Assembly (NCBI GenBank): GCA_005400705.1 | Contig: GCA_005400705.1_4079.1 | DNA: 64,000 nucleotides | Direction: 5' to 3' (one strand) | DNA from: Escherichia coli | GTDB lineage: Bacteria > Pseudomonadota > Gammaproteobacteria > Enterobacterales > Enterobacteriaceae | Part shown: piece by piece, positions 24,540 to 39,877 of the stretch | How positions within the stretch are numbered: the first letter of the stretch is position 1 | How the letters are laid out: every line of letters begins with the position of its first letter | Made by a program: the position numbers and the translations under genes | Notes under the pieces: generated by a model | What the model saw: the letters and a program-made list of their open reading frames with translations, nothing else | The model's database searches: none | Told to the model about the DNA's origin: nothing

Positions 24540-24874
24540 TGGAGTACTTTATTGATTTACTGCCGTGGTATATGAAAGTTAGTACTTTGTACTATATTAT
24601 TAGTGCTGGATTCTACTTTCTGATGTGGTTCTTTAAACGACCAATTTCAGTATTCATCGCTGATAACATGCTGCAATTAAAATTACACGCATGGTTTGGT
24701 ATGGCGATGATTATGCCTATTATTCACTACTCAATGATTAGTAGAGGTTTCCGTTCTAATGGTGAACCAATTGTATTAGTATTCTATTGGGGTTCAACTA
24801 TTGCATATGTAAGTTTGTTGTTGTTCCCAGTCGTTCATAAGTTACGTGCTAAAATTCCTGATGCGAGGTACTAA
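24536..24874 (+). CDS. small multi-pass membrane protein (family M)
   Basis: 112 aa, C-terminal LRAKIPDARY. Confidence 0.5.
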   Translation: MMEYFIDLLPWYMKVSTLYYIISAGFYFLMWFFKRPISVFIADNMLQLKLHAWFGMAMIMPIIHYSMISRGFRSNGEPIVLVFYWGSTIAYVSLLLFPVVHKLRAKIPDARY

Positions 24875-25188
24875 TGGATATAGTAACATTGATTTACACG
24901 TTGTATTCATTCTATTTCATTATGTGTTGGGTTGGATTTTTATTTGTACTCAAGATGTTTGATTATGTTGAAAAACAGATAAAAGAATTTTGTATTCCTT
25001 TTATCGGTTCAACCATTATTAGTGTTTCTTGTGTGTATTTTTTGGTTTTTGATCCACCAGATAACACTGCAATGATTGACTTGATGTTACTACCAACAAC
25101 TGTTACTTTTTTATGTAGTCTGATGCCGCCGATTAGCCGTGGACTAACAGAATTTAGACGCAATCAAAAGCGTAAACGAGGGATGTAA
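24874..25188 (+). CDS. small multi-pass membrane protein (family M)
   Basis: 104 aa, basic C-terminus. Confidence 0.5.
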   Translation: MDIVTLIYTLYSFYFIMCWVGFLFVLKMFDYVEKQIKEFCIPFIGSTIISVSCVYFLVFDPPDNTAMIDLMLLPTTVTFLCSLMPPISRGLTEFRRNQKRKRGM

Positions 25189-25556
25189 TGGAAATTGCTC
25201 TTATTATCTTAACTGCTATGCTGTTTATTAGTACTGTGGTTATAATTGGTAAATTCTTTTGTGTATCATTTTTAGAAACGGTATACGATGAAATTGCTGA
25301 TGATTATGAATTACAAGCCGGATTTTTCATTACGTATTGGCTTAGTTTATTTTGTCTAGTCATTGCTTGGATTTTACATATCTTTAAATGGGGTATGGTA
25401 GACGGTGATCCTATTATGGCAATTATTGTTCTAGTGTTTGGTATCCTTGGTGGTGCAGTGCATAATCTAATGGTTATCTGGCAAACTGTTCAATATGTTT
25501 TGGTTCCCTATTTCGAAAAGATGCACAGTACAATTAAAAAACGTAAACGAGGTTAG
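25188..25556 (+). CDS. small multi-pass membrane protein (family M)
   Basis: 122 aa, basic C-terminus KKRKRG. Confidence 0.5.
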   Translation: MEIALIILTAMLFISTVVIIGKFFCVSFLETVYDEIADDYELQAGFFITYWLSLFCLVIAWILHIFKWGMVDGDPIMAIIVLVFGILGGAVHNLMVIWQTVQYVLVPYFEKMHSTIKKRKRG

Positions 25557-25557
25557 T

Positions 25558-25920
25558 ATGAACGGGATAGAATTATCTTTCGTTGGTCAATTACTAGTAA
25601 TGGCGTATACATTTATCTTCTCACTGAATGCATTCGTGTGCATTGGGAAGTACTTCCATAAGCGACCATTATCAAATATATATGATGTAATCCAAAAGAG
25701 ATATAGTCCAGCATATACTGTGTTGGGTACAGTATTCAATTTTGGTTTTATTGTATTAATAATTGGACTGTTCACATCCTCTTTGAATACAATAACCTTC
25801 GGTCTTATGATATGTTCATTGGTATTAGCCGTAATTATATGTTGTTTAGTACTACACCTTGTGATACTATTATATATAAAGATCTCTGAAATCCACCAAC
25901 GTTTGGGTATGAGGAAATAA
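25558..25920 (+). CDS. small multi-pass membrane protein (family M)
   Basis: 120 aa from ATG 25558. Confidence 0.45.
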   Translation: MNGIELSFVGQLLVMAYTFIFSLNAFVCIGKYFHKRPLSNIYDVIQKRYSPAYTVLGTVFNFGFIVLIIGLFTSSLNTITFGLMICSLVLAVIICCLVLHLVILLYIKISEIHQRLGMRK

Positions 25921-25921
25921 T

Positions 25922-26293
25922 ATGAGTTACCGTGAGATATTTTCCATTATTTCAATTATTATGTTCAGTACTGGAACACTGGTATGGTTATTATATTTCT
26001 TCTGTATTAATCCAGTGTATAATATGTTATGTAATATTAAATCAAGTGCCGGATATATCACTTTTATGGTCTTTATGGGATATTATTGTCTAAGCATTTT
26101 AGGTGTTGTTTTGGTTGTTATATTTGATGTGGGGCCAAATAGTGATGGTATGGAAATACATGAATTAATAACCATGTTTGGATGTATGATACCAACAGCA
26201 CTACTGTTTGTAGCTACTGGTAGTGGATTGATAAAATTATATAATTATTTAAAATCCATTCATAATTCCATTCATAATAAGCGTATGTCATAA
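25922..26293 (+). CDS. small multi-pass membrane protein (family M)
   Basis: 123 aa, hydrophobic. Confidence 0.5.
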   Translation: MSYREIFSIISIIMFSTGTLVWLLYFFCINPVYNMLCNIKSSAGYITFMVFMGYYCLSILGVVLVVIFDVGPNSDGMEIHELITMFGCMIPTALLFVATGSGLIKLYNYLKSIHNSIHNKRMS

Positions 26294-26335: not shown

Positions 26336-26998
26336 ATGATGAAATCAAAATTAGGTTTGTTTTATAAAAACTATTTTGTTAAACAACGTAAATTTATAAA
26401 AAAATATTTCTCTGGTGAGAAGTCTAGTCCTATAATTTTTAAAAGACCAAGTTATAATACTTACTTAGCTTGTGCTAAACAGTCTAAGAAATTTATTACT
26501 CTTTTAAATAAAAACAAAATTAAAGCTTCTTATGTTGAAACGAGAAGAAACTCATCAATAACTCCTGGTGATTTTATTGAGTACGGATGTTTCAATATTA
26601 AGTATAATGATAATACATACTTTATGGATATTGATTGTAATACATCCAATCTTTTTAACATTGTAGTAAATCCATTAAAACAATATAATGTTTATGGTGA
26701 TTCTATTATCAAATTAATCAAAAACAAAGATGGCTTTGATTTTGAAATAAATGTTTTAGATGATAATTTTGACGAAGTACCCGTAAACCCTGAAATCTGT
26801 GATATTTTAAACAGTTTAAAAGGTAGTACCTACAATATATCATCTGATTTAATGTTTCAGTACTCATTAATCCATAAAGATATTGAAAAGTATATTGAAT
26901 GCTCCAGAATTTTGAATTTTCTCTATGATGAATTTAAAAAGAGTTCTAAAATAACTGCATACACTTTGTACAATATTCCTAAAATGGTGAATCTTTAA
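26336..26998 (+). CDS. hypothetical protein
   Basis: 220 aa, RBS aaggag; 3' end converges on the minus-strand array. Confidence 0.55.
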   Translation: MMKSKLGLFYKNYFVKQRKFIKKYFSGEKSSPIIFKRPSYNTYLACAKQSKKFITLLNKNKIKASYVETRRNSSITPGDFIEYGCFNIKYNDNTYFMDIDCNTSNLFNIVVNPLKQYNVYGDSIIKLIKNKDGFDFEINVLDDNFDEVPVNPEICDILNSLKGSTYNISSDLMFQYSLIHKDIEKYIECSRILNFLYDEFKKSSKITAYTLYNIPKMVNL

Positions 26999-27604
26999 CA
27001 AATACAGTACTGGCAACTCCACCGTCTGTAATATATTGTCCAGTACTGTAAATTTGTATACCATCGGTTAAGTAAGTTCTGTATAAAGTTGCTGTAACAT
27101 ATACGTTATTCATATTCATCTCTATTGGTAGTACACATTTGGTATAGGCCGACACATCTGTTTGTGTACCTATACCCAATTGACCTGCGTTATCGCCTGT
27201 GTTATTACCAGTTGCGTAAACACCCAATGAAGTTATAATATGATTAGAAAAATATGAATAACCCAAACTCTTGAGATTCTCTACTGTACAACGTACCATC
27301 TGACATAAGGGCAAAAACTGTTGTATCAGATGAAGCTATTTTTGTTACAGAAGGTTGTATGTTCTGTTTTGATGATGTGATAATTCTTCGAAAGGGTAGC
27401 ATTGTATCCTCCAAATGTAAATCATTATTATATTTAGGACAAAAAAATGCCAGTACAAGGCACTGGCATAAAATCTAAGCAGAAGGCATATCCTTCATCT
27501 TAATAAATGAAAATTGTGTACCAGTATTTGTGGTTCCAATTTCTTTATTTCAGGAAGAGTTGGTTTAATATTTCCGTACTTGACCATTCTTGCAAAAGGT
27601 AACA
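26979..27604 (-). pseudogene. decayed ninth copy of the RCC1-like leader-peptide family
   Basis: Intact start MLPFARMVKYGNI near 27604 hits a stop after about 35 codons; C-terminal fragment ORF 26979-27314 still has GQLGIG. Confidence 0.5.
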
Positions 27605-27678
27605 TAATTCCCTCCTTTTATTTGTTATACTATATTTAATACAAATAAGAAAGCCAGTATCAAGTACTGGCTTTTACA
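27605..27678 (-). promoter_or_regulatory. family cassette: hairpin GCCAGTA-CTTGA-TACTGGC, TATAAT-like element, AAGGAGG RBS
   Basis: Conserved block preceding each RCC1-like paralog. Confidence 0.5.
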
Positions 27679-28869
27679 TTACAATTGTCTAGGTGTATCC
27701 AGTACATATCTATTTGTACGAGGACCACCATCATCATCAGTTCCGGTTGAATATATATTTTTCATATCAGCAGTTAGGAAAGTACGATACGAACCGCGAT
27801 ATATTTTTATTTTATCATACATAGAATATGTTATTTCTGACGGCAATGGACATGCAGTAAATTTACCAATGGTAACATCAGAACCAACACCCAATGTGCC
27901 AGCATAACTACTCGCATTTAAACCAGTTGCATATACACCTGCACTCGTAACTAGTATACTAGATTGTGTTGGGTATCCAGTATGAATTGAATACAAAGTA
28001 CCGGGTGGTAAGGTTGTACTATTGTTTCCTAAAACTCCATTAACAGTGCTAGATGTAGTTTTATTTCCCCATGCTCCATTATTAGCTAATCCACCAACTA
28101 GAAACTGACGTGCTCCTGTATTTGGATTCTCCACTAAAGCACTGACTGAACCCATTGAGCATACAGTGTATTGTAACGTTTTTGTGTATGTTGTACTTGG
28201 CTGATATAAAGTATATTCATTATATAAAGTCCATGTAGTGCTGGAACTTATACCGGATGTACCACCACCAATATATAAATTATTTTGTGTATCAAAAAAC
28301 ATTGCACAGCTATTTGTTGACATTATTTGTGCAATATCAACATCTGGTGTTACAGCTTTAACAAATGAACCATCGGTTATTTGTTGAGTTTTTCCAGTAC
28401 CATCAGCGAATTGTTTAGCCCCACTCCAACCAGTACTCCATATTGTATTATTATCCATTAAGAAAGTAAACCACGTAGTACCTGCATACATCTGTTTAAT
28501 TGAAGTACTTGAACTTTGTGTGAACAAATTTTCAATATATTGGTTATAACTTAAAAATGATGTAGTACTAGTTTCTAAACCAATATGACTACCATATCCA
28601 CAATAAAAATAATTTAAGTCATTATCTTGTACTAACAAAGTTCCTTCTGACATCCAACAATCGTTAACGTTTTCTCTAATTAATGTCCATGTTCTTAATG
28701 CAGTGTTGTTTCCTCTCCCAAACTTCCCAAAACTATTATTGCCTCGTGCGTATAGTTGACCATCAGTATAAAGTACAACAACATCACTATTGATTGGTAT
28801 TATTTTCTTAATTTGAAGAGGCTCAGGTGTAATATTTCCATAATCAAACATTCTAACAAAAGGTAACAT
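27679..28869 (-). CDS. RCC1-like repeat (beta-propeller) protein with MLPFVRMFDYGN leader, paralog 1
   Basis: 396 aa from ATG with RBS aaggagg; G-x-F/L-G-x-G repeats; ORF-track extension MPVLDTG... reads through the upstream hairpin. Confidence 0.7.
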   Translation of the reverse strand: MLPFVRMFDYGNITPEPLQIKKIIPINSDVVVLYTDGQLYARGNNSFGKFGRGNNTALRTWTLIRENVNDCWMSEGTLLVQDNDLNYFYCGYGSHIGLETSTTSFLSYNQYIENLFTQSSSTSIKQMYAGTTWFTFLMDNNTIWSTGWSGAKQFADGTGKTQQITDGSFVKAVTPDVDIAQIMSTNSCAMFFDTQNNLYIGGGTSGISSSTTWTLYNEYTLYQPSTTYTKTLQYTVCSMGSVSALVENPNTGARQFLVGGLANNGAWGNKTTSSTVNGVLGNNSTTLPPGTLYSIHTGYPTQSSILVTSAGVYATGLNASSYAGTLGVGSDVTIGKFTACPLPSEITYSMYDKIKIYRGSYRTFLTADMKNIYSTGTDDDGGPRTNRYVLDTPRQL

Positions 28870-28939
28870 ATTTCCTCCTTTATTCATTATACTATATTTA
28901 ATACAAAAAGAAATGCCAGTATCAAGTACTGGCATAATA
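28870..28939 (-). promoter_or_regulatory. family cassette (hairpin, TATAAT, AAGGAGG)
   Basis: Near-identical to the other inter-paralog blocks. Confidence 0.5.
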
Positions 28940-30118
28940 TTATCGGTTAAATTTAAAATCTGTTATGTGTGTCCATGTATGATTTAATGGTGTACTCATT
29001 GGTGTAAAGCCAGCAGGGTCTGACAAAGCTGTACCACGTGCGTACATAAATTGATTGCCAGTACAATCCATTATAGCATAAGAACGTGTTGCTGTGCCAC
29101 ATTTGAACCCAACTGCACTACTTGGGGTCGGTAATACTTCAAATGTAGGTGCATTTGAACTACCACCCCCATCTTTTGTTCCAGCTATGTACAGAACTCC
29201 ATTAGTATCAATGATTAAGTTAGTCCAATATGCTTGTTCTCGACCAGCATAAAAATATGTTAAATCACCGGGTACAAATGGTAACGTTCCTTTATATATT
29301 GTGGTATTAACATTCACTGGTGCACCAGCTACACCCCATGAACTCATATAGTTTCTCCCACTTGCGTAGAATGTAGTTCCTTTACCGTAAAGTATTAATG
29401 TTGCTTGACTTGTTCGCATTGCATTATATTCAAACTCAGGATCATCAGTAGCGTCCTTAAAAATCTGTGTCCATGTTGTTATATTGCCAGTAGTTGTAAC
29501 ACCCATTTGATAATAATAATTATCACCAGTAGCATAGAATTCTTTAGGGCCAGTTTGTACAATTGCATTCCCATTAGTTAACCAAAAATCTAATGTATTA
29601 GTCTTGATCTTGGTTGGTGTGTAATTCGCCACGGTATTTCCTTTTCCGAAATAACCATTAGCGTTATTTCCATGACCCCATAAATCACCATTAGTTGTGC
29701 GTAGGAATAATGTACCAGTATTGAATCCAACTTTTTCTATAGTACTTATGTCAATACCAACAGCAGTGTACTTCGTTGTAAAATCTTGAAAAGTACTCCA
29801 ATAATTTGATGAACCATTAAACATGGTTTGTCTGCCAGTGTACTTCACTTTATTATCGTTAGTGATAAGTAATGTCCCCCACACTGACGCGAACATTAAC
29901 TTAACATTTTCCATAACAAAGTATGGCTTACCGTATGCTGACGCGGTAGTGTTTAAACCTAATAGTTGTCCATCATTACTACAACCCCATACTTCGCCGT
30001 TATCCAAAAGCATCAACATAGTAGGTTTGCCAGATGATACATCCAAAAAGAAATCTTTTGGTGTTGGTACACCAGGTGTGATATTCCCATAATCAAACAA
30101 TCTTACAAAAGGTAACAT
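28940..30118 (-). CDS. RCC1-like repeat protein with MLPFVRLFDYGN leader, paralog 2
   Basis: 392 aa; conserved leader and RBS. Confidence 0.7.
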   Translation of the reverse strand: MLPFVRLFDYGNITPGVPTPKDFFLDVSSGKPTMLMLLDNGEVWGCSNDGQLLGLNTTASAYGKPYFVMENVKLMFASVWGTLLITNDNKVKYTGRQTMFNGSSNYWSTFQDFTTKYTAVGIDISTIEKVGFNTGTLFLRTTNGDLWGHGNNANGYFGKGNTVANYTPTKIKTNTLDFWLTNGNAIVQTGPKEFYATGDNYYYQMGVTTTGNITTWTQIFKDATDDPEFEYNAMRTSQATLILYGKGTTFYASGRNYMSSWGVAGAPVNVNTTIYKGTLPFVPGDLTYFYAGREQAYWTNLIIDTNGVLYIAGTKDGGGSSNAPTFEVLPTPSSAVGFKCGTATRSYAIMDCTGNQFMYARGTALSDPAGFTPMSTPLNHTWTHITDFKFNR

Positions 30119-30189
30119 ATTTCCCTCCTTTATTCATTATACTATATTTAATACAAATAAGAATGCCAGTATCAAGTACTGGCATTATG
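30119..30189 (-). promoter_or_regulatory. family cassette (hairpin, TATAAT, AAGGAGG)
   Basis: gccagtacttgatactggc hairpin and tatagtataatgaataaaggaggg. Confidence 0.5.
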
Positions 30190-31299
30190 TTATTTTGGTA
30201 AATCAATTTTAGTAAAGACTGCAACATCTTCACTTGCTCCTGGTATTGCGTAATAAGAACCAGTACTATACACATCTCCATTTTTGGTTAATATCGATGT
30301 CAAACCATCACTAAAAAGAACATCCCTAATCTCACTAACTTCAACTGGTAATTGTAAATTGGTAGCACTATATATAGCACCAGTTTGAGAATTGTTTAAT
30401 CCCAAACCACGGTTCGCCCCAACACCCTTCTGATATGTACTAGTAATTACCATTTGTGTAGCAGTATTTAAGGCAGGTGAATTCGTCATAAACAACGGAG
30501 AACTATTAGGCAAAGTACTTACAGGAACGGCACGGAATGTAGTCGTACCTGAACTAAGAAAGTTTGGAGTTTGACCACATACGAAATATGATGTACCATT
30601 ATAGTAATTGAATGCATTACCACCAATGGCTGCATCGATTACACCAGAACTACGCAATCCCCAAGTGTTAATTTGTGTTTGGTTCCCCGTACCATGCTGT
30701 CCACTACTATTCCATCCAGAACTATATAGCTTATTATCTAATGTAAGATACATACTATCATTCGCATTGGTCATTACTTTACGAACGTTCGTAGCACATT
30801 GAGTTAATGTGTAAATTGATGAGGAACCAATACCCAAAGAACCACGATATCCATTATCTCCTGCACCATAGAGTACTGAATTAGTGCTAAGTACAAATAT
30901 TAAACCATTTGTACATACAATATTAGCAATTTCACTTACTGGTATAGCATTGGTAAACCAATTAGTCCTTTCAACTAATACAGTACTGTAAGAAGTAGTT
31001 GTAGAAGATGAGAACCAGTACGTTTGACCTGATGTCCATATCGTATTATCATTTTTAATAATAACAAGTGTACGATCACCCACGAAAAAATTAGAAACAT
31101 CTGTACTTACTAATATCCATGAAGATACCGTGTTGGTATTACCATTTCCAGATTCACCACCTTGATTTCTACCTATGTAATATAAATCATGTGAATCAGT
31201 CAATAAGAATTGACCTTGTGTAGAAGCACCAACTTTAATTATATTTTTAGGACCAGGTACAATATTTCCGTACTTAACCATTCTTGCAAAAGGTAACAT
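30190..31299 (-). CDS. RCC1-like repeat protein with MLPFARMVKYGN leader, paralog 3
   Basis: 369 aa; GSLGIG, GQHGTG motifs; only 10 nt downstream of paralog 4 (likely co-transcribed). Confidence 0.7.
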   Translation of the reverse strand: MLPFARMVKYGNIVPGPKNIIKVGASTQGQFLLTDSHDLYYIGRNQGGESGNGNTNTVSSWILVSTDVSNFFVGDRTLVIIKNDNTIWTSGQTYWFSSSTTTSYSTVLVERTNWFTNAIPVSEIANIVCTNGLIFVLSTNSVLYGAGDNGYRGSLGIGSSSIYTLTQCATNVRKVMTNANDSMYLTLDNKLYSSGWNSSGQHGTGNQTQINTWGLRSSGVIDAAIGGNAFNYYNGTSYFVCGQTPNFLSSGTTTFRAVPVSTLPNSSPLFMTNSPALNTATQMVITSTYQKGVGANRGLGLNNSQTGAIYSATNLQLPVEVSEIRDVLFSDGLTSILTKNGDVYSTGSYYAIPGASEDVAVFTKIDLPK

Positions 31300-31309
31300 A
31301 ATTCTCTCC

Positions 31310-32440
31310 TTAATTTAATAATGCCCCTGGCAAATCCACTTTGACGAATTGTGCATATGCTGAGGAATTTTGATCAAAGTTTGGTCCCAATCCATAAAAT
31401 GAGCTAATGCCGTCTTCATTTGTGTATATGATATAAACGTTCTTTACATCATTTCCGCATATAAATCGAATGTCTTTCGTTTGTGTTCCCGCTGGAACAT
31501 TACGAAGGTTCACAACGCCATTACTTGCATTGTTATCAGCCGACGCAATTGGTAATTGATTTTGACCATATTGACCACGCATATTTTTTGCATCTAAACC
31601 AAACACAGTATTTGATACCGCACCAACTTTCAAAAATGAACCAAAACTATTATTGAATGACTTTGGAAATGTACCACTATAAACACTTCTCCCATCTGAT
31701 AATACCGCTGAACTGAATTTCCCGTTATTCGATATGGCAAATTCATTGTAAGGAAGTGTACCCATTTTGGTATATACAGAATATGAATTAGTGGAAGTAT
31801 TATCAATAATCTTATTACCATTATATCCAATACCATACTGGTATCCGTCTGCATCTTGAACTATACACAAAGGACCACTTGGGGTTTGTGTCAACGAAAC
31901 AACACGTTCAACTTGTATATCACCAAATGTATTTCTTCGCCATGTTCTATCTATTATAGTACTAGTATTACCCAAAGATAATTCCACACTATATAATAGA
32001 TTGTTTTCAGTAAAAATGGCAACATAATATGCGTGGTTAATAACTTGCTTCATCCCAGCATCAATAACTTCCTGTGGAATATGATCAGTAACATCCAACC
32101 AATCAAGGTTAGATGATGCAATATCTGGAGTACTGAATTTGTCAAATCTAGTTGAGCCACAAACTAGCACTCTATCATCATTTGTCAAAGCCACTGTGCT
32201 AGTCTGCATATTAGAACTGAATGATTTAACATTACTAATGTTAGACTTGTACCAACCCTTATCAGCAGCACCCACCGTGAATCCGGTTCCCATTGATCCA
32301 CTTGTACTTGTACCATAAGCCCACATCTCACCACTATATGTTAGTGCCATACAGTGGCTTCCATTTGCTTGGAAATCCTTTATACCAGTGGGAGCAACCA
32401 CTGTATTCCCATAATCAAACATTCTAACAAAAGGTAACAT
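31310..32440 (-). CDS. RCC1-like repeat protein with MLPFVRMFDYGN leader, paralog 4
   Basis: 376 aa from ATG 32440 (RBS ggag); ORF-track start 32455 adds 5 codons without an RBS. Confidence 0.65.
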   Translation of the reverse strand: MLPFVRMFDYGNTVVAPTGIKDFQANGSHCMALTYSGEMWAYGTSTSGSMGTGFTVGAADKGWYKSNISNVKSFSSNMQTSTVALTNDDRVLVCGSTRFDKFSTPDIASSNLDWLDVTDHIPQEVIDAGMKQVINHAYYVAIFTENNLLYSVELSLGNTSTIIDRTWRRNTFGDIQVERVVSLTQTPSGPLCIVQDADGYQYGIGYNGNKIIDNTSTNSYSVYTKMGTLPYNEFAISNNGKFSSAVLSDGRSVYSGTFPKSFNNSFGSFLKVGAVSNTVFGLDAKNMRGQYGQNQLPIASADNNASNGVVNLRNVPAGTQTKDIRFICGNDVKNVYIIYTNEDGISSFYGLGPNFDQNSSAYAQFVKVDLPGALLN

Positions 32441-32515
32441 AACTAAAATCTCCATATAATAATTATAATGTATTTACAAAAAAATACCAGTACATATTTC
32501 AGTACTGGTATAATG
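32441..32515 (-). promoter_or_regulatory. family cassette variant (hairpin ACCAGTACTGAAATATGTACTGGT, TATAAT)
   Basis: Palindromic hairpin plus tataat. Confidence 0.45.
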
Positions 32516-33688
32516 TTATGGTAAAATAATAGCTTGTAACGAACTCATACCCAATGTTGGGACACTCGCCTGTGGTGCTGGTGCATTCACTTTTGGTGAT
32601 GAAACCGCATAAGTCATTCCTGTACCCAAATCTGGATCAAAAACTACAGAACAATAATCCCCATTGTATATAAGTCCATTAGTATATCCTTGTGCACTTT
32701 GAATGCATTTCGTGAACGTACCAATGTCAGTAGTGGCATTTATTAAGTTCCTCCCACGGTAGCCACAGGTGTATATGAAATTATCAACACCTATGTACAT
32801 ACTCGCAGAACCAGAAGAACTACATAGATAAGACATATAAGCACGCATGTTTTTAGGAGCAACTGACAATGTACCAGCATAGAATTTATTATTCATACTC
32901 GAAATATCACCATCACCCAAAGCACCAAAACTCCCCCAACCAGTACCATAATATCTCTTATCACTCAAGAATATAATACAGTTGTTATTACACATCTTGA
33001 CTTGATATATCAATGAAGGATCAACCCCAGGGAATGATTCAGTGTATGTTAGAACAGCCAGATCAGTACTAGCATTACATTGATGATATGTATTAGTACC
33101 AGCGGACAATATTGTACCATCAACTAATAGAATCCTCGAAGTGCCAGTACCAGCAATACAAGCAACAGCATTACCTGTATATATTTGTCTGAAAGTAAAG
33201 AAACCAACAGTCTTACTCCCCTGTCCACTCCAACCAGTATTATCAACACCACATGCCCATACTGAACCATCTTGCATGATCATCATTACACCATAGCGTT
33301 CTATCGAAATATAGACAATCTTCGTAGTATCAACTGCACTAAATCTAGAAGTTATATCAGTCCAAACCTTTACACTCACCGCCGTCGCACCGAAAGTAGG
33401 ATCTTCCCCTGCTATCATTATCCTACCATTGTTAGTCAGATACATTGTCTGACTATAACCAGTACTACAAAACTTAACACTATCAGTCTCTGGAACTTTT
33501 AACCACTCGTTGTAACGTGTTACGTTAGTGTTATTACCTAACTGATAATAGTTATTCATCCCAGATACATATAACACACCATCCTTTATTAAACTATAAG
33601 TCGCACTATAGTCACTACAGGTATAACGTGTACCCACAGGTCGCTCAACGACGTTCCCATAATCAAACATTCTAACAAAAGGTAACAT
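32516..33688 (-). CDS. RCC1-like repeat protein with MLPFVRMFDYGN leader, paralog 5
   Basis: 390 aa; GALGDG motif. Confidence 0.7.
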   Translation of the reverse strand: MLPFVRMFDYGNVVERPVGTRYTCSDYSATYSLIKDGVLYVSGMNNYYQLGNNTNVTRYNEWLKVPETDSVKFCSTGYSQTMYLTNNGRIMIAGEDPTFGATAVSVKVWTDITSRFSAVDTTKIVYISIERYGVMMIMQDGSVWACGVDNTGWSGQGSKTVGFFTFRQIYTGNAVACIAGTGTSRILLVDGTILSAGTNTYHQCNASTDLAVLTYTESFPGVDPSLIYQVKMCNNNCIIFLSDKRYYGTGWGSFGALGDGDISSMNNKFYAGTLSVAPKNMRAYMSYLCSSSGSASMYIGVDNFIYTCGYRGRNLINATTDIGTFTKCIQSAQGYTNGLIYNGDYCSVVFDPDLGTGMTYAVSSPKVNAPAPQASVPTLGMSSLQAIILP

Positions 33689-33768
33689 AATTAAATCTCC
33701 AAAATTAAAATAATTAGATAGTATTTACAAAAAATACCAGTACATATTTCAGTACTGGTATCGTAGCG
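33689..33768 (-). promoter_or_regulatory. family cassette variant
   Basis: Same hairpin type as 32441-32515. Confidence 0.45.
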
Positions 33769-34911
33769 TTAAAATGGCATCTTAACCTCTTTATATACTA
33801 ATATATCACCGGATAAACCAGGAAACGCAGAACCATTACCACATGCATATATAGTACTATCATTCCACACTGCTTGATGGTAATTGCCTATAGTACATTT
33901 ATAATTCGATAAATCAGTCACACCAGGTGTTAGTACATAATATACTGGTCCACTAGGTAAATTAAAATCAAATCTACCAAAGTAGTTCAAACCAGATGAA
34001 TAGGACTTGTCATTAGCAAATATTACAGTACCATCTTCTGTAAAAGAACTGTGAGAAATGTCTTTGAGATTGTTCACAACACCAGACGGTATTGATGTAT
34101 TCAACGTAAAGGACGTCAATGGTGCTGCACTTGGTGTGTTGTTCGCCGTGTAACCATAATATGCATAACCAGCTACATATACACTCGAATCTGAACAAAA
34201 TAAAAATGCACTCCTATAACCCAACCTAATACTCTCTATAGTCTTACTAAAAGTAACTTTAGTAAAGGTAGGAACTAAACCACTATATCCTACCCCACAT
34301 GTACCAAAATCATTCTTCCCAGTACTGTACAATTCGTTATTATTTGTAAGGTAAAATGACGCAGCAGCACCGCTATCTAAAGTACTGTAAACGTCTTTTA
34401 CATTACTCGCAATCAATTTAAATGCACTCAATACGGTAGCCGAACCATTGTTAGACAGCGTTGTTGAATCCGTGCCTTGTCCTATTGTATATAAATCTCC
34501 AGTACTAGTCAAAACAAATATACCATTAGTCGCCATAACAATTCTGTCATTCTTTAAATTAAATGAACTAAAAAGTGTACTTATATCAGTAAAGGTAGTA
34601 TAACGCCCACTCTGCCCTATACTCGATAAATTCCCACTCAAATAAACCTTATTATCATTACCAACAGCTACATAACAACCCCACCCAGCATATATCTGAT
34701 CAATGCCTTGTATCGGTATTTGTAACCATTCACTACCAGTTACCGAAGCAGTACTTCCAGTTCCAAGTTCACCAGAGTTATTAGCTCCGAATACATATAA
34801 ATTCCCACTATCCGATAAAACAACTGTATTACCAACTCCAGTTTTTATATCCTTGATACCATTCTTAGGAGCAACATTCCCATAATCAAACATTCTAACA
34901 AAAGGTAACAT
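33769..34911 (-). CDS. RCC1-like repeat protein with MLPFVRMFDYGN leader, paralog 6
   Basis: 380 aa; GELGTG motif. Confidence 0.7.
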   Translation of the reverse strand: MLPFVRMFDYGNVAPKNGIKDIKTGVGNTVVLSDSGNLYVFGANNSGELGTGSTASVTGSEWLQIPIQGIDQIYAGWGCYVAVGNDNKVYLSGNLSSIGQSGRYTTFTDISTLFSSFNLKNDRIVMATNGIFVLTSTGDLYTIGQGTDSTTLSNNGSATVLSAFKLIASNVKDVYSTLDSGAAASFYLTNNNELYSTGKNDFGTCGVGYSGLVPTFTKVTFSKTIESIRLGYRSAFLFCSDSSVYVAGYAYYGYTANNTPSAAPLTSFTLNTSIPSGVVNNLKDISHSSFTEDGTVIFANDKSYSSGLNYFGRFDFNLPSGPVYYVLTPGVTDLSNYKCTIGNYHQAVWNDSTIYACGNGSAFPGLSGDILVYKEVKMPF

Positions 34912-34983
34912 ATTTCCCTCCTTTATTCATTATACTATATTTAATCAAAAAGAAAAGCCAGTACTTGAGTACTGGCATAGTTT
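34912..34983 (-). promoter_or_regulatory. family cassette (hairpin, TATAAT, AAGGAGG)
   Basis: gccagtactcaagtactggc hairpin, tatagtataatgaataaaggagg. Confidence 0.5.
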
Positions 34984-36111
34984 TCAAAAAGGTAAATCAA
35001 TTTGCTTAGTAATAATAGTATCTAACGGTATTGAACACAATGAGAAATTCTTTCCACCCGTATTTTCAGGATTATATCCATTCATCCATACATTATTACC
35101 TTCGTAAAATGTATTCCAGTATAAAGCCCCACTATATCGTGTATTCGAATTGAACGATGGAAAGTTGAATTCTTGGAATGATGTAAAATATGGAATGGAA
35201 CTTGAACTACTTCCCGTAAATGGGGTATACCCAGTTGCTATTAGTTTGTTTGTATCTGCATTAATTAAAAATACAACACTAGTCGAATAGTCCAACGAAT
35301 CAGGATGATATATATTACTCATATCACCTATAGTAAAACCAACATCAAAAACTTTACTATGTGCACCACTACCAGCAAAAGTAGTTCCAGTTGCATATAT
35401 TTTATTATCAGATGTTATCATTACAAAACCAGCACCAGAAACAAAACTGCATTTTATATCATAAGATATATCATCAAACAACGGAACAAATGTGGTTGCA
35501 TCACCCGATGTTGCTTTAACTTGAAAGCTGTTATTTGAACCTGAACCATATACAGTTCCATCGTTTTTAATCTTAAACAATGTATCGCCAAGGTAACCGC
35601 CAAATATATTATCCACATTAGTGTCAAGTACAGTCCACGCTGAAACATAATTTTTATGTCCTAAACCTAATGCACCACTTCGATTCCATCCTCTTCCATA
35701 AAGTGTTCCGTCTTTCATTAATATAAATGCTGTATAACCACATAACATTTTTTTAATTTGGGTAACATCTATACCAGTGAAATACACACCCCAGTCAGTA
35801 TATCCTTGTTGGAAAGTATCAGAATTCGTGAATGCATATGTTGAACCTGAACCATATATTTTATCACCTTTAATAACAACGGAAAACAATCCTAACCATA
35901 AGTCATCAACTTCAGTTGTGATTTGTTGAACTGCTCCTAACGATACAAACTGTGTACTTAAACCCGCATTATAGTTTGAATCTTCACCGTGTGCATATAC
36001 AGTGCCATCTTGCATTAGAAACATTTCAAGAGTGTAACTAACAACACTTTTCTTTATATTATTAACTTCGATTATATTCCCATAATCAAACATTCTAACA
36101 AAAGGTAACAT
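34984..36111 (-). CDS. RCC1-like repeat protein with MLPFVRMFDYGN leader, paralog 7
   Basis: 375 aa; GALGLG motif. Confidence 0.7.
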   Translation of the reverse strand: MLPFVRMFDYGNIIEVNNIKKSVVSYTLEMFLMQDGTVYAHGEDSNYNAGLSTQFVSLGAVQQITTEVDDLWLGLFSVVIKGDKIYGSGSTYAFTNSDTFQQGYTDWGVYFTGIDVTQIKKMLCGYTAFILMKDGTLYGRGWNRSGALGLGHKNYVSAWTVLDTNVDNIFGGYLGDTLFKIKNDGTVYGSGSNNSFQVKATSGDATTFVPLFDDISYDIKCSFVSGAGFVMITSDNKIYATGTTFAGSGAHSKVFDVGFTIGDMSNIYHPDSLDYSTSVVFLINADTNKLIATGYTPFTGSSSSSIPYFTSFQEFNFPSFNSNTRYSGALYWNTFYEGNNVWMNGYNPENTGGKNFSLCSIPLDTIITKQIDLPF

Positions 36112-36183
36112 AATTCCCTCCTTTATTCATTATACTTTATTTAATACAAATAAGAATTCCTGTATCGAGTACTGGCATTCAAT
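36112..36183 (-). promoter_or_regulatory. family cassette (hairpin, TATAAT, AAGGAGG)
   Basis: gccagtactcgatacagg hairpin-like, tataatgaataaaggagg. Confidence 0.45.
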
Positions 36184-37332
36184 TTATTGTAAAAAGGACA
36201 TATCTACTTCTGTATAACTAAGAATGTTTTGACCAGCAATTCCACCCATTACTACTATTGCATACCCACAATAATATAATTTCCCAGTGTCCGTAAGTAT
36301 AAGTGAACCAGAAGGTGTTCTTACCAAATTACACGAACTATTAAAAGAAGTATACGAAGGAGTATAGGAGTACTGATCAATATTATTACCAACACCTAAT
36401 TGACCACCCCTATTCGAACCAGATGCATAAAGTACTTCATCTGCTTTGACAATATGTGATGCCATGTTACCAACACATGCATATACACCATATACCCCTG
36501 TACTCAATAATGTAGGAGTCTTGTATTGAATATCAGTACTAGTAGATGTTCCACCTGTGCCAAATTCATTACCATATTGTGCTCCGTACTGCTTCCCACA
36601 TGCGTACAAATTATTATCGGACTTAATAAAAAATGTACTCTGATAACTTACATCAAAATCTATAACATCCGAAGAAATCATCGTTACCCCAGTAATCGAA
36701 GTTTGATTACCAGTACCCAACTGGTAGTAATAGTTAAAACCACAACCCCATAAAGTATTATCTTCTCGCAAATAAATGTTACCAACAGCCTTTTTAACAG
36801 ATGTTATAGTACTGACCTTCTTGAAGGTATTAAATGAATCAATGTTAGTACCATCTCCAAAGGAGGATATGTTCGATGCGTTATTAGCACCACAACAATA
36901 TAATGTCCCATCCTTCAGTACTAAATTTACCTTCATATCATTAAAACTGCTCATATACTCAATATCAGATACACTAATACCACCTGATGTTATCCACGTA
37001 GTACAGTCCGTCCATAACGTCTTCCTATCAGTTACCCCAGTAAATGCCTCCGTGTTACCAGTGATAAACACTTTACCAGTACCCTTTTCTTCATACAATT
37101 GACAATCACTACTGTTATCTTCCAATAAAACCCTCTGTACATTCTCTGCACAAAGAATAAATTTACTCGATGCTACACCTGTTCCAGTACCCCAATTCGT
37201 CGCAGAAGATGCATACAACTTATGTGTTAGTGTATCATGCAAATACATAGAACCACTAGAATATATTTTAAAACGCCCAGAGTTGGTAGGTGCTTCATTC
37301 CCATAATCAAACATTCTAACAAAAGGTAACAT
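36184..37332 (-). CDS. RCC1-like repeat protein with MLPFVRMFDYGN leader, paralog 8
   Basis: 382 aa; GQLGVGNN motif; first gene of the minus-strand block. Confidence 0.7.
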   Translation of the reverse strand: MLPFVRMFDYGNEAPTNSGRFKIYSSGSMYLHDTLTHKLYASSATNWGTGTGVASSKFILCAENVQRVLLEDNSSDCQLYEEKGTGKVFITGNTEAFTGVTDRKTLWTDCTTWITSGGISVSDIEYMSSFNDMKVNLVLKDGTLYCCGANNASNISSFGDGTNIDSFNTFKKVSTITSVKKAVGNIYLREDNTLWGCGFNYYYQLGTGNQTSITGVTMISSDVIDFDVSYQSTFFIKSDNNLYACGKQYGAQYGNEFGTGGTSTSTDIQYKTPTLLSTGVYGVYACVGNMASHIVKADEVLYASGSNRGGQLGVGNNIDQYSYTPSYTSFNSSCNLVRTPSGSLILTDTGKLYYCGYAIVVMGGIAGQNILSYTEVDMSFLQ

Positions 37333-37375
37333 AATTCCCTCCTTTATTCATTATATCATATTTACCCCATAACCC

Positions 37376-37404
37376 TTGACATCCTTTCAGTACTGGTGTA
37401 CTAT
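37376..37404 (+). promoter_or_regulatory. candidate promoter TTGACA-17-TACTAT in divergent region
   Basis: ttgaca 37376-37381, AGTACTG in spacer. Confidence 0.4.
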
Positions 37405-37429
37405 AGAAGGAATATAAGGAGAACTACAC

Positions 37430-37657
37430 ATGACAGCTACACTTAAGTACTACATTAATACTCTAAATGAACTAGAGTACGCGAAGTTTCTCGCGGATTG
37501 TTCGTGGCTAATAGAGCTAAAAACACATAACAGTACTGGATGTAACCTTATGCTGAACAGTGCACTTGATACCCTTGTAGTGAGTATTTTACACAGCAAC
37601 ATCTGCGTGGATAGCAATAAACAATTATCAAAAATCTTAGTACTGGTAGCTATATGA
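37430..37657 (+). CDS. small protein, tandem family A
   Basis: 75 aa, RBS aaggag. Confidence 0.5.
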   Translation: MTATLKYYINTLNELEYAKFLADCSWLIELKTHNSTGCNLMLNSALDTLVVSILHSNICVDSNKQLSKILVLVAI

Positions 37658-37866
37658 ACACTATGAACATTAAACAGTACTACATCGATGCACTACCAAC
37701 AAAAGGTCTACGAGAAAGCCTACTGTATACACAAAATAATTTTATACACTACAAACGTTATCCTAAACTCCTGAACTCGTACAGGAATAATAACATAAGA
37801 AATGCTTTACAAGGGGTAGAAAGTATGCAATACTATTACATCCTTACCCTTTTAATCGAGTACTAA
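37654..37866 (+). CDS. small protein, tandem family A
   Basis: 70 aa; QYYIDALP N-terminus, C-terminal LTLLIEY. Confidence 0.5.
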   Translation: MNTMNIKQYYIDALPTKGLRESLLYTQNNFIHYKRYPKLLNSYRNNNIRNALQGVESMQYYYILTLLIEY

Positions 37867-37867
37867 T

Positions 37868-38053
37868 ATGTATAAAGAATTCTACTGTAGTAAGCTGCAC
37901 AAACAATACAGAGATTCATTTCCCAATGAACCTATGGACATGAATAGTCCCTTTTATAATTTTGACTTCAGACTGGAGACACGTTATGCAATAGAACATC
38001 AATTTCCTGAAACTAAGTACTTAGCTATCATGAACCTCATCTTTAAGTTCTAA
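37868..38053 (+). CDS. small protein, tandem family A
   Basis: 61 aa. Confidence 0.45.
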   Translation: MYKEFYCSKLHKQYRDSFPNEPMDMNSPFYNFDFRLETRYAIEHQFPETKYLAIMNLIFKF

Positions 38054-38274
38054 AAGAGTACTATATGAAAACTATGAACATTCATCAGTACTACTTAGAT
38101 ATTCTCCCTAAAGATGTGCAGAACATCCTTAAACAAGAATTCAGTACTTTAAAAAAACCTTAAAAGATCCGCACCGAATGTACTCATCCTGCACCAAATA
38201 AATGTAGTTGATAATATTCTACAAGGTGTACCAGGAACCGAGTACTTTAATATAGTAAGGCTAATTACATTACA

Positions 38275-38460
38275 ATGAATCATATAAGCTACTATTACCA
38301 AAAACTATCCGACCGAGACAAGTACAGCCACAACTCCCATGTATGGTACTACAAACGCGGTAGTATAAGGGACAAACAACATTACTTCTGTACTGCTATA
38401 AAAGAAACACTAACAACTAAGTACACGTACAGAGCAGTACTGAAACTTATTGATATGTAA
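38275..38460 (+). CDS. small protein, tandem family A
   Basis: 61 aa; C-terminal YTYRAVLKLIDM. Confidence 0.45.
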   Translation: MNHISYYYQKLSDRDKYSHNSHVWYYKRGSIRDKQHYFCTAIKETLTTKYTYRAVLKLIDM

Positions 38461-38470
38461 AGAGAATACT

Positions 38471-38656
38471 ATGAATACATTTGAGTACTATACAAATAAA
38501 CTATCTATGCCAGAAAGATCTCATCTCTATGTGTGGAGAAATGCGTATAAAAGCGGCAATAAACTTATACAAAGAAATTCCCTTACAGTGTGTACAAATT
38601 TAATTAAAGCAGAGTACCGCACATATATTGAAGTACTGAAACTAATCTCTATCTAA
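38471..38656 (+). CDS. small protein, tandem family A
   Basis: 61 aa from ATG 38471; C-terminal EVLKLISI. Confidence 0.45.
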   Translation: MNTFEYYTNKLSMPERSHLYVWRNAYKSGNKLIQRNSLTVCTNLIKAEYRTYIEVLKLISI

Positions 38657-38664
38657 GGTACTCT

Positions 38665-38844
38665 ATGCAAGAATTCTATATCTATAAACTTCAGCACAAA
38701 GATAGATACAACTATAATAAATTCCAAAGGTACTACACAGTCGGGAACAAAAGAGATAAAAAACGATACTTTCTATCATGTACAGTAGAAGCACAAAACG
38801 AAAAGTACACGTACAGAGAAGTACTGAAACTCATCTCAATCTAA
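38665..38844 (+). CDS. small protein, tandem family A
   Basis: 59 aa (below ORF-track cutoff); C-terminal YTYREVLKLISI. Confidence 0.4.
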   Translation: MQEFYIYKLQHKDRYNYNKFQRYYTVGNKRDKKRYFLSCTVEAQNEKYTYREVLKLISI

Positions 38845-38852
38845 GGAATAAT

Positions 38853-39032
38853 ATGCAAGAATACTATATAGAACACATAAGCATTAAAGACCGTTTCATG
38901 TACGACACCTTCGTGAAGTACTACAACCTGGCAACTAACAGTACTAAAAATATTAATCTCAATAGCTGCATTCATCACGCACTAACAAAAGATAATCCCT
39001 TCAGGGAAATCCTCGCACTAGCATCTGTATAA
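38853..39032 (+). CDS. small protein, tandem family A
   Basis: 59 aa from ATG 38853 with RBS aagga. Confidence 0.45.
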   Translation: MQEYYIEHISIKDRFMYDTFVKYYNLATNSTKNINLNSCIHHALTKDNPFREILALASV

Positions 39033-39042
39033 AGGAAACCAA

Positions 39043-39702
39043 ATGAAACTTAATGCACACAGCAAACAATACCTTAAGCACTTTAAGTACCTCAACAGTA
39101 TTCAAGCAGAATCTATTACATCTGCATATACGTATCACCCTAATGTACTAAAGAAACGAAATAAAAAGAAAAAATCCAGAAATGTTCTCGTATCTAAGAA
39201 CCTCAAATCGTACTTGAAGAAAAATAATATAGCTCTTGCTTTTATTAATATCTATAATACTGATTTAAAAGTATTGAGTACTAATACCAGCACAAAAGCA
39301 CTAAAGAATGCATCTATCTATATACACATGGATAATATCCCGTGCACTATAATTCTATCTTTCGGGAATGTATACTTCTTCGGGAATTGTAATAGCACCC
39401 ATGATATCAGTACTGCACAATTCCAAATCGGCGATATGTACTGCATGGGTTCAGAAAAAATACACGATAACATGCACTTCTTCCAAAAGCAACGTACTAA
39501 CGAAACTGATACAGTACTGCAATTCCTCAAAGAATTACAAAACAAAGAATTATCCGAGGAAGAAGAATTCATGTACAGTACTGTAATCGATAATCCAGAA
39601 CTCTATAAAAACGCGTACAATCTAACAAAACATGTACAGGAACTTATCAGTACTGATAAGAAATTTCATCACCTCATTACGTATATTTCAAACTATGTAT
39701 AA
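39043..39702 (+). CDS. hypothetical protein
   Basis: 219 aa, RBS aaggaaa; interrupts family A array. Confidence 0.55.
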   Translation: MKLNAHSKQYLKHFKYLNSIQAESITSAYTYHPNVLKKRNKKKKSRNVLVSKNLKSYLKKNNIALAFINIYNTDLKVLSTNTSTKALKNASIYIHMDNIPCTIILSFGNVYFFGNCNSTHDISTAQFQIGDMYCMGSEKIHDNMHFFQKQRTNETDTVLQFLKELQNKELSEEEEFMYSTVIDNPELYKNAYNLTKHVQELISTDKKFHHLITYISNYV

Positions 39703-39877
39703 AGAATACTACAAAGATAAAATCCCAATGCATCTACAACACCATATACCAAACGTTGCATTGGGTATCAAAGATCACGCAAAGATAATGTTCCAACAAT
39801 GTACTAAGTACACGCTCATATACGATGATAATCCATATATGCTGTACTACGTAGTAATGCTAACATTCAGGTACTAA
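39695..39877 (+). CDS. small protein, tandem family A
   Basis: 60 aa from ATG 39695; MYKEYYKDKIP ... LTFRY. Confidence 0.45.
   Translation: MYKEYYKDKIPMHLQHHIPNVALGIKDHAKIMFQQCTKYTLIYDDNPYMLYYVVMLTFRY

Follow-up and report, generated by a model that had tools for sequence, protein, structure and literature searches.

RCC1-like proteins encoded in several copies per genome have been noted in jumbo phages, and a role in DNA condensation or in an inner body of the virion has been guessed for them (PMC7247149, PMC5259590). Here we analyze an array of such genes at positions 26979-37429 of a 64,000-nucleotide stretch of DNA (the window), which is deposited under Escherichia coli (NCBI GenBank assembly GCA_005400705.1, contig GCA_005400705.1_4079.1) and falls, by megablast, in the Asteriusvirus group of ~350-kb coliphages that includes 121Q, PBECO4, phAPEC6, and EJP2. 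The proteins of this array begin with a common 12-residue leader peptide that also heads proteins of other folds in related phages. We read this leader, with a probability of roughly 0.55, as an uncleaved docking tag that brings exchangeable ligand-binding modules into the virion, most likely on its surface. A first-pass annotation of the window did not recognize the array as a standard module. It is in fact a known one, the phrog_4219 family; dozens of genomes have it annotated, and both of the papers cited above discuss it. The array is of the same kind as the phrog_4219 members of other Rak2-like jumbo phages (phAPEC6, 121Q, PBECO4, and GAP32 gp001), with orthologs of up to 99% identity, and it occupies the same locus, phAPEC6 gp549-551 plus gp001-010 and 121Q_234-248, between syntenic flanks; the set and the order of the cassettes are particular to the present phage. 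The leader system itself appears undescribed: neither the shared leader nor its presence on non-RCC1 folds, its retention in virions, or the cassette boundaries were found in the searchable literature, and a literature search with the leader strings gave nothing relevant.

The internal proteins IPI, IPII, and IPIII of T4 and other T-even phages have a constant N-terminus of ~10 to 12 residues on unrelated hypervariable virion proteins, and their locus is reshuffled at conserved sequences (PMC3012670). The present array and its relatives resemble them in that a short constant N-terminal peptide is common to unrelated virion proteins (RCC1, Kelch, LamG-like, and unclassified). They differ in that the leader has no sequence similarity to the T4 peptide, remains uncleaved in homologs from phage CBB, and lacks an (L/I)xE site, and in that large propellers or lectin-like domains make up the bodies, whereas the T4 internal proteins are small basic or compact proteins. 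In the hyperplastic regions of T4-type genomes, PeSL units, which combine a stem-loop terminator with a promoter, flank non-core genes and serve as recombination sites for modular shuffling (PMC2839356). Units of a hairpin and a promoter-like motif likewise bound the cassettes described here and coincide with breakpoints. However, the predicted promoter has a TAAATA core and is late-like rather than of the sigma-70-like early type, the repeated unit reaches 36 nt into the coding sequence, and related genera keep the leader without hairpin and promoter.

A constant N-terminal anchor combined with a variable binding domain is also typical of receptor-binding proteins, such as phage tail fibers and spikes or the adenovirus fiber, whose tail peptide binds the penton base. 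The known phage anchors, however, are folded domains of at least 100 residues on trimeric fibers, whereas in this array a 12-residue peptide is joined directly to a globular, apparently single-domain body, and the genes lie far from the tail-fiber module.

One leader on propellers and on unrelated folds

The array consists of the following genes and remnants, all on the minus strand.

36184-37332, minus strand: cassette 1, RCC1-like propeller gene, 382 amino acids; leader MLPFVRMFDYGN at 37297-37332
34984-36111, minus strand: cassette 2, RCC1-like propeller gene, 375 amino acids; leader at 36076-36111
33769-34911, minus strand: cassette 3, RCC1-like propeller gene, 380 amino acids; leader at 34876-34911; the copy used for structure modeling
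32516-33688, minus strand: cassette 4, RCC1-like propeller gene, 390 amino acids; leader at 33653-33688
31310-32440, minus strand: cassette 5, RCC1-like propeller gene, 376 amino acids; leader at 32405-32440
30190-31299, minus strand: cassette 6, RCC1-like propeller gene, 369 amino acids; 121Q-type leader MLPFARMVKYGN at 31264-31299
28940-30118, minus strand: cassette 7, RCC1-like propeller gene, 392 amino acids; leader MLPFVRLFDYGN at 30083-30118
27679-28869, minus strand: cassette 8, RCC1-like propeller gene, 396 amino acids; leader at 28834-28869
27495-27605, minus strand: remnant 1, decayed cassette with promoter, leader MLPFARMVKYGN, 24 more codons, and a stop (36-amino-acid stub)
26979-27402, minus strand: remnant 2, decayed cassette with divergent leader MLPFRRIITSSK, a frameshift, and an internal deletion of ~720 bp; last-blade open reading frame at 26979-27314

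The listing of open reading frames (ORFs) and the alignment agree with the first-pass annotation on eight intact, consecutive minus-strand paralogs of 369 to 396 amino acids with highly divergent bodies (just 19 to 27% identity). For copies 5 and 8, the start was placed at the leader ATG (32440 and 28869), as the longer versions of these ORFs would overlap the Shine-Dalgarno sequence and the promoter. The array had also been described as the sole minus-strand block, which is true for real genes; the other minus-strand ORFs in the window are short and overlap plus-strand genes. Where a single decayed copy had been counted, there are two. Remnant 1 is the ortholog of phAPEC6 gp010 and aligns to its start and end, with ~1,040 bp of the body deleted. 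Remnant 2 has an identical counterpart in phAPEC6 and a longer split form in 121Q (121Q_235 plus 121Q_234).

All eight paralogs match the Pfam RCC1, RCC1_2, or RCC1-like (RLD; WD40_RLD) domains, with RCC1_2 and/or RCC1 scoring above the curated cut-off in every one and RLD E-values of 7e-8 to 3e-30; they also match phrog_4219 over the full length, starting from residue 1 (E-values of 7e-23 to 3e-110). For cassette 1, the respective E-values are 1.8e-11 (RCC1_2), 9e-25 (RLD), and 1e-106 (phrog_4219). The G-x-L-G-x-G motifs from which a seven-bladed RCC1-type fold had been proposed (GQLGVG, GALGLG, GELGTG, GSLGIG, and GALGDG) are all found in the array. The AlphaFold2 (AF2) model of copy 3, the sole copy modeled (from a 50-sequence alignment), has a predicted local distance difference test score (pLDDT) of 82 and a predicted template modeling score (pTM) of 0.85. 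In Foldseek it retrieves UVR8, RPGR, RCC1, and the RCC1-like domains of HERC2 over the full length, with E-values of 1e-20 to 1e-15 and TM scores of 0.7 to 0.8. Pfam, AF2, and Foldseek agree with the proposed fold, and the modeling indicates that the bodies are seven-bladed RCC1-type propellers.

The seven-bladed fold and the Pfam repeats are what the phage proteins have in common with eukaryotic RCC1, UVR8, RPGR, and the RCC1-like domains of HERC2. They share only 14 to 20% identity with these proteins, however, are acidic (isoelectric points of 4.6 to 6.7), and come from a host without Ran or chromatin. At the N-terminus, eukaryotic RCC1, the partner of Ran, has a basic tail that binds DNA or histones, whereas the phage proteins have the hydrophobic MLPF leader. 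In public records, the names “GTPase regulator,” “HERC1,” and “DNA condensation” were carried over on the strength of the fold alone. Overall, the names of array members in public records vary, including S-layer protein, Ig domain, BNR repeat, HERC1, and X-linked retinitis pigmentosa GTPase regulator.

All eight proteins start with the 12 residues MLPF(V/A)R(M/L)(F/V)(D/K)YGN. The first-pass annotation had called the leader identical, and the shared peptide is indeed conserved at the protein level. It is, however, exactly MLPFVRMFDYGN in six of the eight copies; copy 7 has MLPFVRLFDYGN (M7L) and copy 6 has MLPFARMVKYGN. The clade-wide consensus is M-[LI]-P-F-x-R-hydrophobic-hydrophobic-x-Y-G-N. 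In a large protein database, 43 of 131 homologs carry this leader, all of them ~380-amino-acid jumbo-phage proteins, and no bacterial RCC1 protein does. A tblastn search with the leader retrieved 58 records, all of them phage genomes of 310 to 386 kb from Escherichia, Salmonella, Cronobacter, Erwinia, Serratia, Yersinia, Klebsiella aerogenes, Pectobacterium, and Xanthomonas; RaK2-type Klebsiella phages gave no leader match by tblastn and no RCC1-family match. A scan of IMG/VR DNA with the back-translated motif found just seven contigs, six of 348 to 378 kb and one 109-kb fragment.

The leader is not confined to the RCC1 fold. In at least seven related jumbo-phage groups, the same leader is found on RCC1 propellers, Kelch propellers, LamG/ConA-like jelly rolls, and unclassified bodies, and mixed-fold leader arrays are present in XbC2, Munch, and Hallingskeid. 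The non-RCC1 carriers include the following.

EJP2_508: leader followed by a Kelch propeller (Pfam E-value of 2.7e-22)
GAP32 gp002, BF gp372, and proteins of Munch, Hallingskeid, and XbC2: family of ~210 to 235 amino acids, leader followed by a LamG/ConA-like body (best LamG_3 E-value of 9e-12)
121Q_243 (245 amino acids) and EJP2_500 (460 amino acids): leader followed by a body without a Pfam match
CBB_548-554: array of seven leader genes, with three Kelch, two LamG, and two GAP32_002-like bodies and no RCC1 member
CBB_247: leader followed by a weak LamG_3 match (E-value of 0.001), at a separate locus

For the ~210-amino-acid family, a profile search of PDB sequences gave a marginal match alone (E-value of 0.067), and the Pfam LamG_3 match is clearer. 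CBB_247 and 121Q_243 show no body similarity and have only the first ~23 residues in common. The leader is thus a portable, fold-independent element and not part of the fold. In the phAPEC6 record, the 244-amino-acid leader-bearing non-RCC1 ORF that is orthologous to 121Q_243 (L003, 7325-8059) is left unannotated; the record instead lists a 100-amino-acid ORF in a different frame (gp004, 7716-8018).

In RCC1-type propellers, the ring is closed by a blade that combines N- and C-terminal strands, and the C-termini of the paralogs are semi-conserved (..DLPF), so that the leader could be viewed as the N-terminal closure (“velcro”) strand. In the AF2 model of copy 3, however, residues 1 to 18 have no secondary structure and the pLDDT is 51 for residues 1 to 10, which argues that the leader is not simply a blade strand. 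Moreover, the same peptide is found in front of Kelch, LamG-like, and unclassified bodies, whereas bacterial and other viral RCC1 proteins do without it. We consider a closure strand extremely improbable and have rejected it on the low model confidence and the occurrence of the leader on other folds.

A second class of leader, MLPFPIIS(N/K)T, without YGN, is found in Serratia phage BF (L002), in Xanthomonas phage XbC2 (L008), and in L012. Several proteins, both RCC1-type and smaller ones, begin with it, in arrays that also contain the canonical class.

Cassette boundaries, exchange, and selection

Every gene except copy 6 is preceded by a hairpin with a T-run and by the motif KTAAATAYNNTATAAT, followed by a strong Shine-Dalgarno sequence (AAAGGAGG or GGAG) and the ATG. 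Cassettes 5 and 6 are 10 nt apart, with neither a terminator nor a promoter in between. The boundary elements are located as follows.

37350-37365, 36129-36144, 34929-34944, 33713-33728, 32462-32477, 30136-30151, 28886-28901, and 27624-27639, minus strand: eight copies of the promoter-like motif KTAAATAYNNTATAAT
34957-34976, 33733-33762, 32484-32511, 30162-30186, 28913-28935, 27650-27674, and 27447-27469, minus strand: G+C-rich hairpins with a T-run after cassettes
27567-27674, minus strand: example of the ~105-nt repeated boundary (hairpin, promoter, Shine-Dalgarno sequence, and 36-nt leader)

The eight copies of KTAAATAYNNTATAAT in the window, versus 0.94 expected, are all in the array and all on the minus strand, each ~20 nt upstream of a cassette ATG. 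The TAAATA core of this motif resembles the ATAAATA late motif of CBB and GAP32 and the T4 late promoter TATAAATA, and the motif is unlike the sigma-70-like promoters found on the plus strand of the window. The array motifs have no -35 element at 16 to 18 nt, and a sigma-70 promoter scan of the array found no enrichment (54 versus 54.2 expected). By analogy, expression of the cassettes would be late. The hairpins have the core CCAGTACT...TACTGG and the aligned consensus ATGCCAGTACT...TACTGGCAT-T(n); in total, 15 terminator-like sites were found, versus 4.0 +/- 2.1 expected. The example boundary at 27567-27674 has at least 10 matches each, of 87 to 95% identity, in the arrays of phAPEC6 and 121Q, and the leader DNA is nearly identical within the present genome, synonymous sites included. 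A tRNA scan and an Rfam search found nothing.

The first-pass annotation had suggested exchangeable proteins, and the comparison shows exchange between phages. Neighboring cassettes have their best orthologs in different phages, and the order is shuffled. Thus, cassette 1 is 89% identical at the amino acid level to 121Q_248 and 82% to EJP2_507, the closest sequenced relative of cassette 2 is EJP2_497 (63%), and cassettes 4, 5, and 7 correspond to EJP2_505 (97% amino acid identity), EJP2_510 (98%), and EJP2_498 (88%), while cassette 6 is 99% identical to 121Q_246 and to its phAPEC6 ortholog, and cassette 8 is 87% identical to 121Q_244. Cassette 3 has no ortholog of more than 27% identity in any sequenced Asteriusvirus; its nearest sequenced relatives, at 34.5%, come from the Salmonella phages Munch, 7t3, and SE_PL and the Klebsiella aerogenes phage fENko-Kae01, and a metagenome protein from a short contig (P0001) matches it at 97%.

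At the DNA level, identity in cassettes 4, 5, and 6 steps from 35 to 60% up to 96 to 100% at the ATG or leader and down again at the hairpin. Cassette 4 is 96 to 100% EJP2-like from +30 to +1230, with flanks of ~50%. Cassette 6 is ~100% identical to 121Q_246 from the ATG to approximately +1200, with flanks of 35 to 60%; the DNA upstream of it is 100% EJP2-like, and this identity drops exactly at the ATG, which points to a recombination junction at the leader. The leader variant tends to follow the genome and not the body, with MFD in the present phage, MVK in most copies of 121Q and phAPEC6, and mainly MLE, ILE, and IMT in EJP2, which suggests homogenization within a genome.

The number of synonymous substitutions per site (dS) between a cassette and its best ortholog ranges from 0 to 0.7 across neighboring cassettes (1.36 for the 63%-identical pair of cassette 2 and EJP2_497), compared to 0.03 to 0.06 for the flanking genes. 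The ratio of nonsynonymous to synonymous substitution rates (dN/dS) between orthologous cassettes is 0.06 to 0.28, with the exception of cassette 4 versus EJP2_505, where the value of 0.86 comes at a dS of 0.016 and, with divergence near zero, is uninformative. Each cassette is thus under purifying selection. Positive selection was considered and rejected, as the gene-wide ratios are against it; judging from the sequences, the diversity would stem from old divergence and exchange rather than from detectable gene-wide positive selection. No sequenced phage record covers at least 80% of the array, whereas 31 records cover at least 80% of the adjacent 25-kb flank, at up to 96 to 97% identity. The array therefore looks like a hypervariable island in an otherwise 96 to 97% conserved genome. 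In an independent genome paper, “chromosome condensation regulators” belong to the small set of proteins that diverge strongly between phages of the same species.

Conservation of the leader itself was assessed in 81 leader-bearing ORFs from 10 genomes, with the following residues and codons.

Position 1: M, invariant (ATG)
Position 2: L or I, invariant as such
Position 3: P, invariant (CCT 53, CCA 23, CCG 4, CCC 1)
Position 4: F, invariant (TTT 75, TTC 6)
Position 6: R, 85% (AGA 51, AGG 16, CGT 2)
Position 10: Y, 93% (TAT 32, TAC 43)
Position 11: G, 90% (four codons)
Position 12: N, 90% (AAT 68, AAC 5)

Hydrophobic residues occupy positions 7 and 8, and position 9 varies freely among polar residues (K, N, Q, E, D, or T). 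These data bear on the possibility that the leader has no function as a peptide and is merely the coding end of an expression or recombination cassette, a translation-initiation region or homology arm that hitch-hikes on the bodies. Such a reading would fit the near-identity of the leader DNA within the genome, contiguous with the conserved promoter and Shine-Dalgarno sequence, as well as the position of the breakpoints at the leader and the specificity of the variant to the genome. Across genera, however, the residues are conserved despite varying codons (four for P, four for G, three for R, and two for Y). The array genes of Munch, XbC2, Hallingskeid, and BF mostly follow one another directly, with the Shine-Dalgarno sequence alone between them and without promoter and hairpin, and the leader is kept in all of them; in CBB_247, it is found at a different locus. 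Folding of the 5' untranslated region plus leader RNA of five cassettes revealed no significant structure (z scores of -1.2 to +1.4), and on these grounds we reject an RNA-level cause of the conservation. Because the codons vary, the leader is kept without promoter and hairpin, and the RNA folding is unremarkable, a purely nucleic-acid explanation is rejected, and we regard a leader without peptide function as very improbable. The varying synonymous codons show that the leader peptide itself is under selection.

Leader-bearing proteins in the virion

Published proteomes place leader-bearing proteins of every fold class in virions, in line with the anchoring or targeting peptide that the first-pass annotation had suggested. 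Eight RCC1 paralogs of phAPEC6 are found in its virions (PMC7247149), GAP32 gp001 is among the published virion proteins of that phage, and two 41.5-kDa “DNA condensation” proteins appear in the virion proteomes of Erwinia Eneladusviruses. The published CBB virion proteome includes CBB_247, 548, 549, 551, 552, and 553, with Kelch, LamG, and GAP32_002-like bodies and coverage of up to 51%. The phAPEC6 and CBB mass spectra come from whole virions. The CBB virion peptides include LLQYGNK, which corresponds to residues 7 to 13 of CBB_553 and is preceded by R, YANVIVEYATK (residues 10 to 20 of CBB_548), and VVSNEYEINLDFSR (residues 15 to 28 of CBB_553); for CBB_247, the single reported peptide is C-terminal. 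The leader is present in the mature CBB particle at least from residue 7 on. The earlier idea of a constant anchoring or targeting peptide in front of variable binding bodies is thereby substantially borne out, and it extends beyond RCC1, whereas the cleavage after the leader that came with it is contradicted by virion peptides that contain the leader core. Cleavage of the T4 type was considered and rejected, as seen on the homologs, on these CBB peptides and on the variable position 9, with no conserved Glu.

This bears on the closest competing explanation, in which an uncleaved capsid-targeting leader would load the proteins into the prohead, from which they would be ejected with the DNA to bind host factors, for example as a diversified anti-defense repertoire analogous to the T4 internal proteins. 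The layout is alike, in that a hypervariable locus encodes unrelated bodies behind a short constant N-terminus; the phages have a T4-like prohead core and protease along with an unassigned inner body; the proteins are present in virions; and the array lies within the early, host-takeover part of the genome. Yet the T4 sequence is cut off by the prohead protease, while the leader is retained in mature CBB virions, is devoid of a conserved Glu or (L/I)xE site, with K, N, Q, E, D, or T at position 9, and shows no similarity to the T4 capsid-targeting sequence. Furthermore, the proteins are acidic, and their bodies are rigid propellers or jelly rolls of 25 to 42 kDa, of types that are extracellular in bacteria and found in tail fibers of other phages. 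We therefore view internal cargo as unlikely, albeit a serious contender.

The published guess that RCC1-like “DNA condensation proteins” organize the packaged genome or form the inner body fares worse, and we judge it very improbable. The argument leans on the family name and on nucleosome binding by eukaryotic RCC1, which does not come with the fold as such; the best structural matches (UVR8, RPGR, and HERC2 RCC1-like domains) are protein-binding propellers, and the phage proteins combine isoelectric points of 4.6 to 6.7 with the lack of a basic tail. CBB does without any RCC1 member and yet has a leader array with Kelch and LamG bodies. The cassette content differs wildly among near-identical phages, which is unexpected for a core packaging component. 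A better candidate for the inner body, or for an internal protein, than the RCC1 paralogs looks to be the following protein.

15655-16932, plus strand: highly charged virion protein of 425 amino acids with a basic Gly/Ser/Arg-rich N-terminus, matching phrog_20398 (“virion structural protein”)

It is probably the phAPEC6 “chromosome segregation protein” gp035c (46.4 kDa, 8 virion peptides), a match made through the annotation of the corresponding region.

Peptide counts in the Erwinia study are 9 to 25 for leader-bearing proteins versus 834 to 1337 for the similarly sized major capsid protein. The phAPEC6 capsid has ~1,620 copies of the major capsid protein (PMC7247149). As a rough estimate, leader-bearing proteins would amount to ~1 to 2% of the capsid protein, or tens of copies per paralog per particle if the figure of ~1,620 capsid copies applies.

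We favor a surface location for the leader-bearing proteins because of their extracellular body types, the presence of RCC1 in tail fibers elsewhere, their acidity, and the hair-like fibers on the particles. Bacterial RCC1 homologs carry T9SS, SLH, Big, and FN3 domains, and RCC1 propellers are found inside tail-fiber proteins of other phages (Littlefix, PollyC, and P0003). Particles of 121Q, phAPEC6, and CBB bear unassigned hair-like fibers on the capsid hexamers and on the tail. In the docking-tag model, each cassette would comprise a late-type promoter, a Shine-Dalgarno sequence, the 12-residue peptide, a globular binding domain (here always an RCC1-like propeller), and a hairpin terminator. 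The flexible, uncleaved, fold-independent peptide would dock any body that follows it on a common virion site, so that the particle would carry a mixed, swappable set of modules for ligand binding, which would most likely sit on the surface, possibly on the hair-like fibers of capsid and tail. The ~105-nt boundary may double as a site of homologous recombination, through which cassettes would duplicate, be deleted, become homogenized within a genome, and be swapped between phages. The docking function, the surface location, the binding of ligands, and the late expression are what we infer from these data. A bolder version, in which the 12-residue “plug” is the universal adaptor of the 121Q/GAP32/CBB/BF clade and attaches any binding domain to one shared socket on the virion surface (with the hair-like fibers as the most plausible place), yielding a mixed and swappable adhesin repertoire, a natural phage display without a known sequence relative, is offered tentatively, with the odds somewhat against it.

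Several points weigh against the docking-tag model. Retention of the leader was seen in CBB homologs with LamG-like bodies, neither in the present phage nor in an RCC1 member, and the first six residues, MLPFxR, are absent from the observed CBB peptides, which would be compatible with trimming before residue 7. Coverage in virion mass spectrometry is low (1 to 5 peptides in phAPEC6), and co-purifying contaminants might be involved, although the result recurs in four independent studies. The radiation-sensitive inner body of 121Q and phAPEC6, with its unassigned proteins, would also suit an internal site. Position 9 of the leader varies freely, charge reversal included, and an anchor of 12 residues is far shorter than the known anchor domains of receptor-binding proteins. 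Both the target of the leader and the position of the proteins in the particle are, at this stage, things that we infer.

If the model is correct, hundreds of jumbo-phage genes would receive a testable role in place of a misleading label (“DNA condensation protein,” “GTPase regulator,” or “HERC1”). It would provide candidates for the unexplained hair-like fibers of 121Q, phAPEC6, and CBB, or else for an uncleaved route of capsid loading, and exchange within the array would account for the fact that therapeutic coliphages that are otherwise near-identical differ mainly here. Should the 12-residue tag suffice for incorporation, it could serve directly for the loading or display of foreign proteins on a particle of very large size, an application with a precedent in the T4 capsid-targeting sequence, and the cassette boundaries would be natural swap sites for binding modules.

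Neighboring genes and repeats

The array is set in a region of the early, host-takeover type and is bordered on both sides by tandem families of plus-strand genes.

2745-3710, 4799-5587, and 18055-18729, plus strand: RpoD-like sigma factor, HNH endonuclease, and T7 gp0.7-like protein kinase
37654-41416, plus strand: ~15 consecutive genes for ~60-amino-acid paralogs (MNKEHKEFYIRKL...VLTLVLSY), the equivalents of 121Q_249-265; second tandem family
23854-26293, plus strand, directly downstream of the array: seven consecutive hydrophobic, membrane-like paralogs of ~105 to 140 amino acids with basic tails (..KRKRG); third tandem family

The first gene of the family at 37654-41416 has a sigma-70-like promoter that is divergent from cassette 1. 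GC skew stays negative (-0.13 to -0.24) over 36000-42000, and AT skew is strongly positive up to ~42 kb; this pattern persists at 37.4 to 41.4 kb although the genes there are on the plus strand.

The commonest 8-mer in the window is the palindromic octamer CAGTACTG, with 74 copies versus 0.88 expected (e.g., at 6107, 20771, 42069, 46510, 50918, and 58388). AGTACT occurs 299 times (4.7 per kb), with sites in both coding and non-coding DNA, and is similarly dense (3 to 7 per kb) in the respective loci of 121Q, EJP2, GAP32, CBB, BF, XbC2, Munch, and Hallingskeid. A literature search for the CAGTACTG motif gave nothing relevant. Approximately 11 copies of CAGTACTG lie in the spacer of sigma-70-like promoters (TTGACA-N8-9-CAGTACTG-TATAAT); the octamer and AGTACT might act in promoters, bind a protein, or be sites of modification or nicking.

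The ~2-kb stretch at 41400-43400 is free of ORFs, equals an unannotated gap in 121Q, and has no Rfam or tRNA match. It contains ~12 copies of the 12-nt palindrome TTCAGTACTGAA and, at 42467-42594, a repeat with an 8-nt period (GGATGGCT / AGACGGCT).

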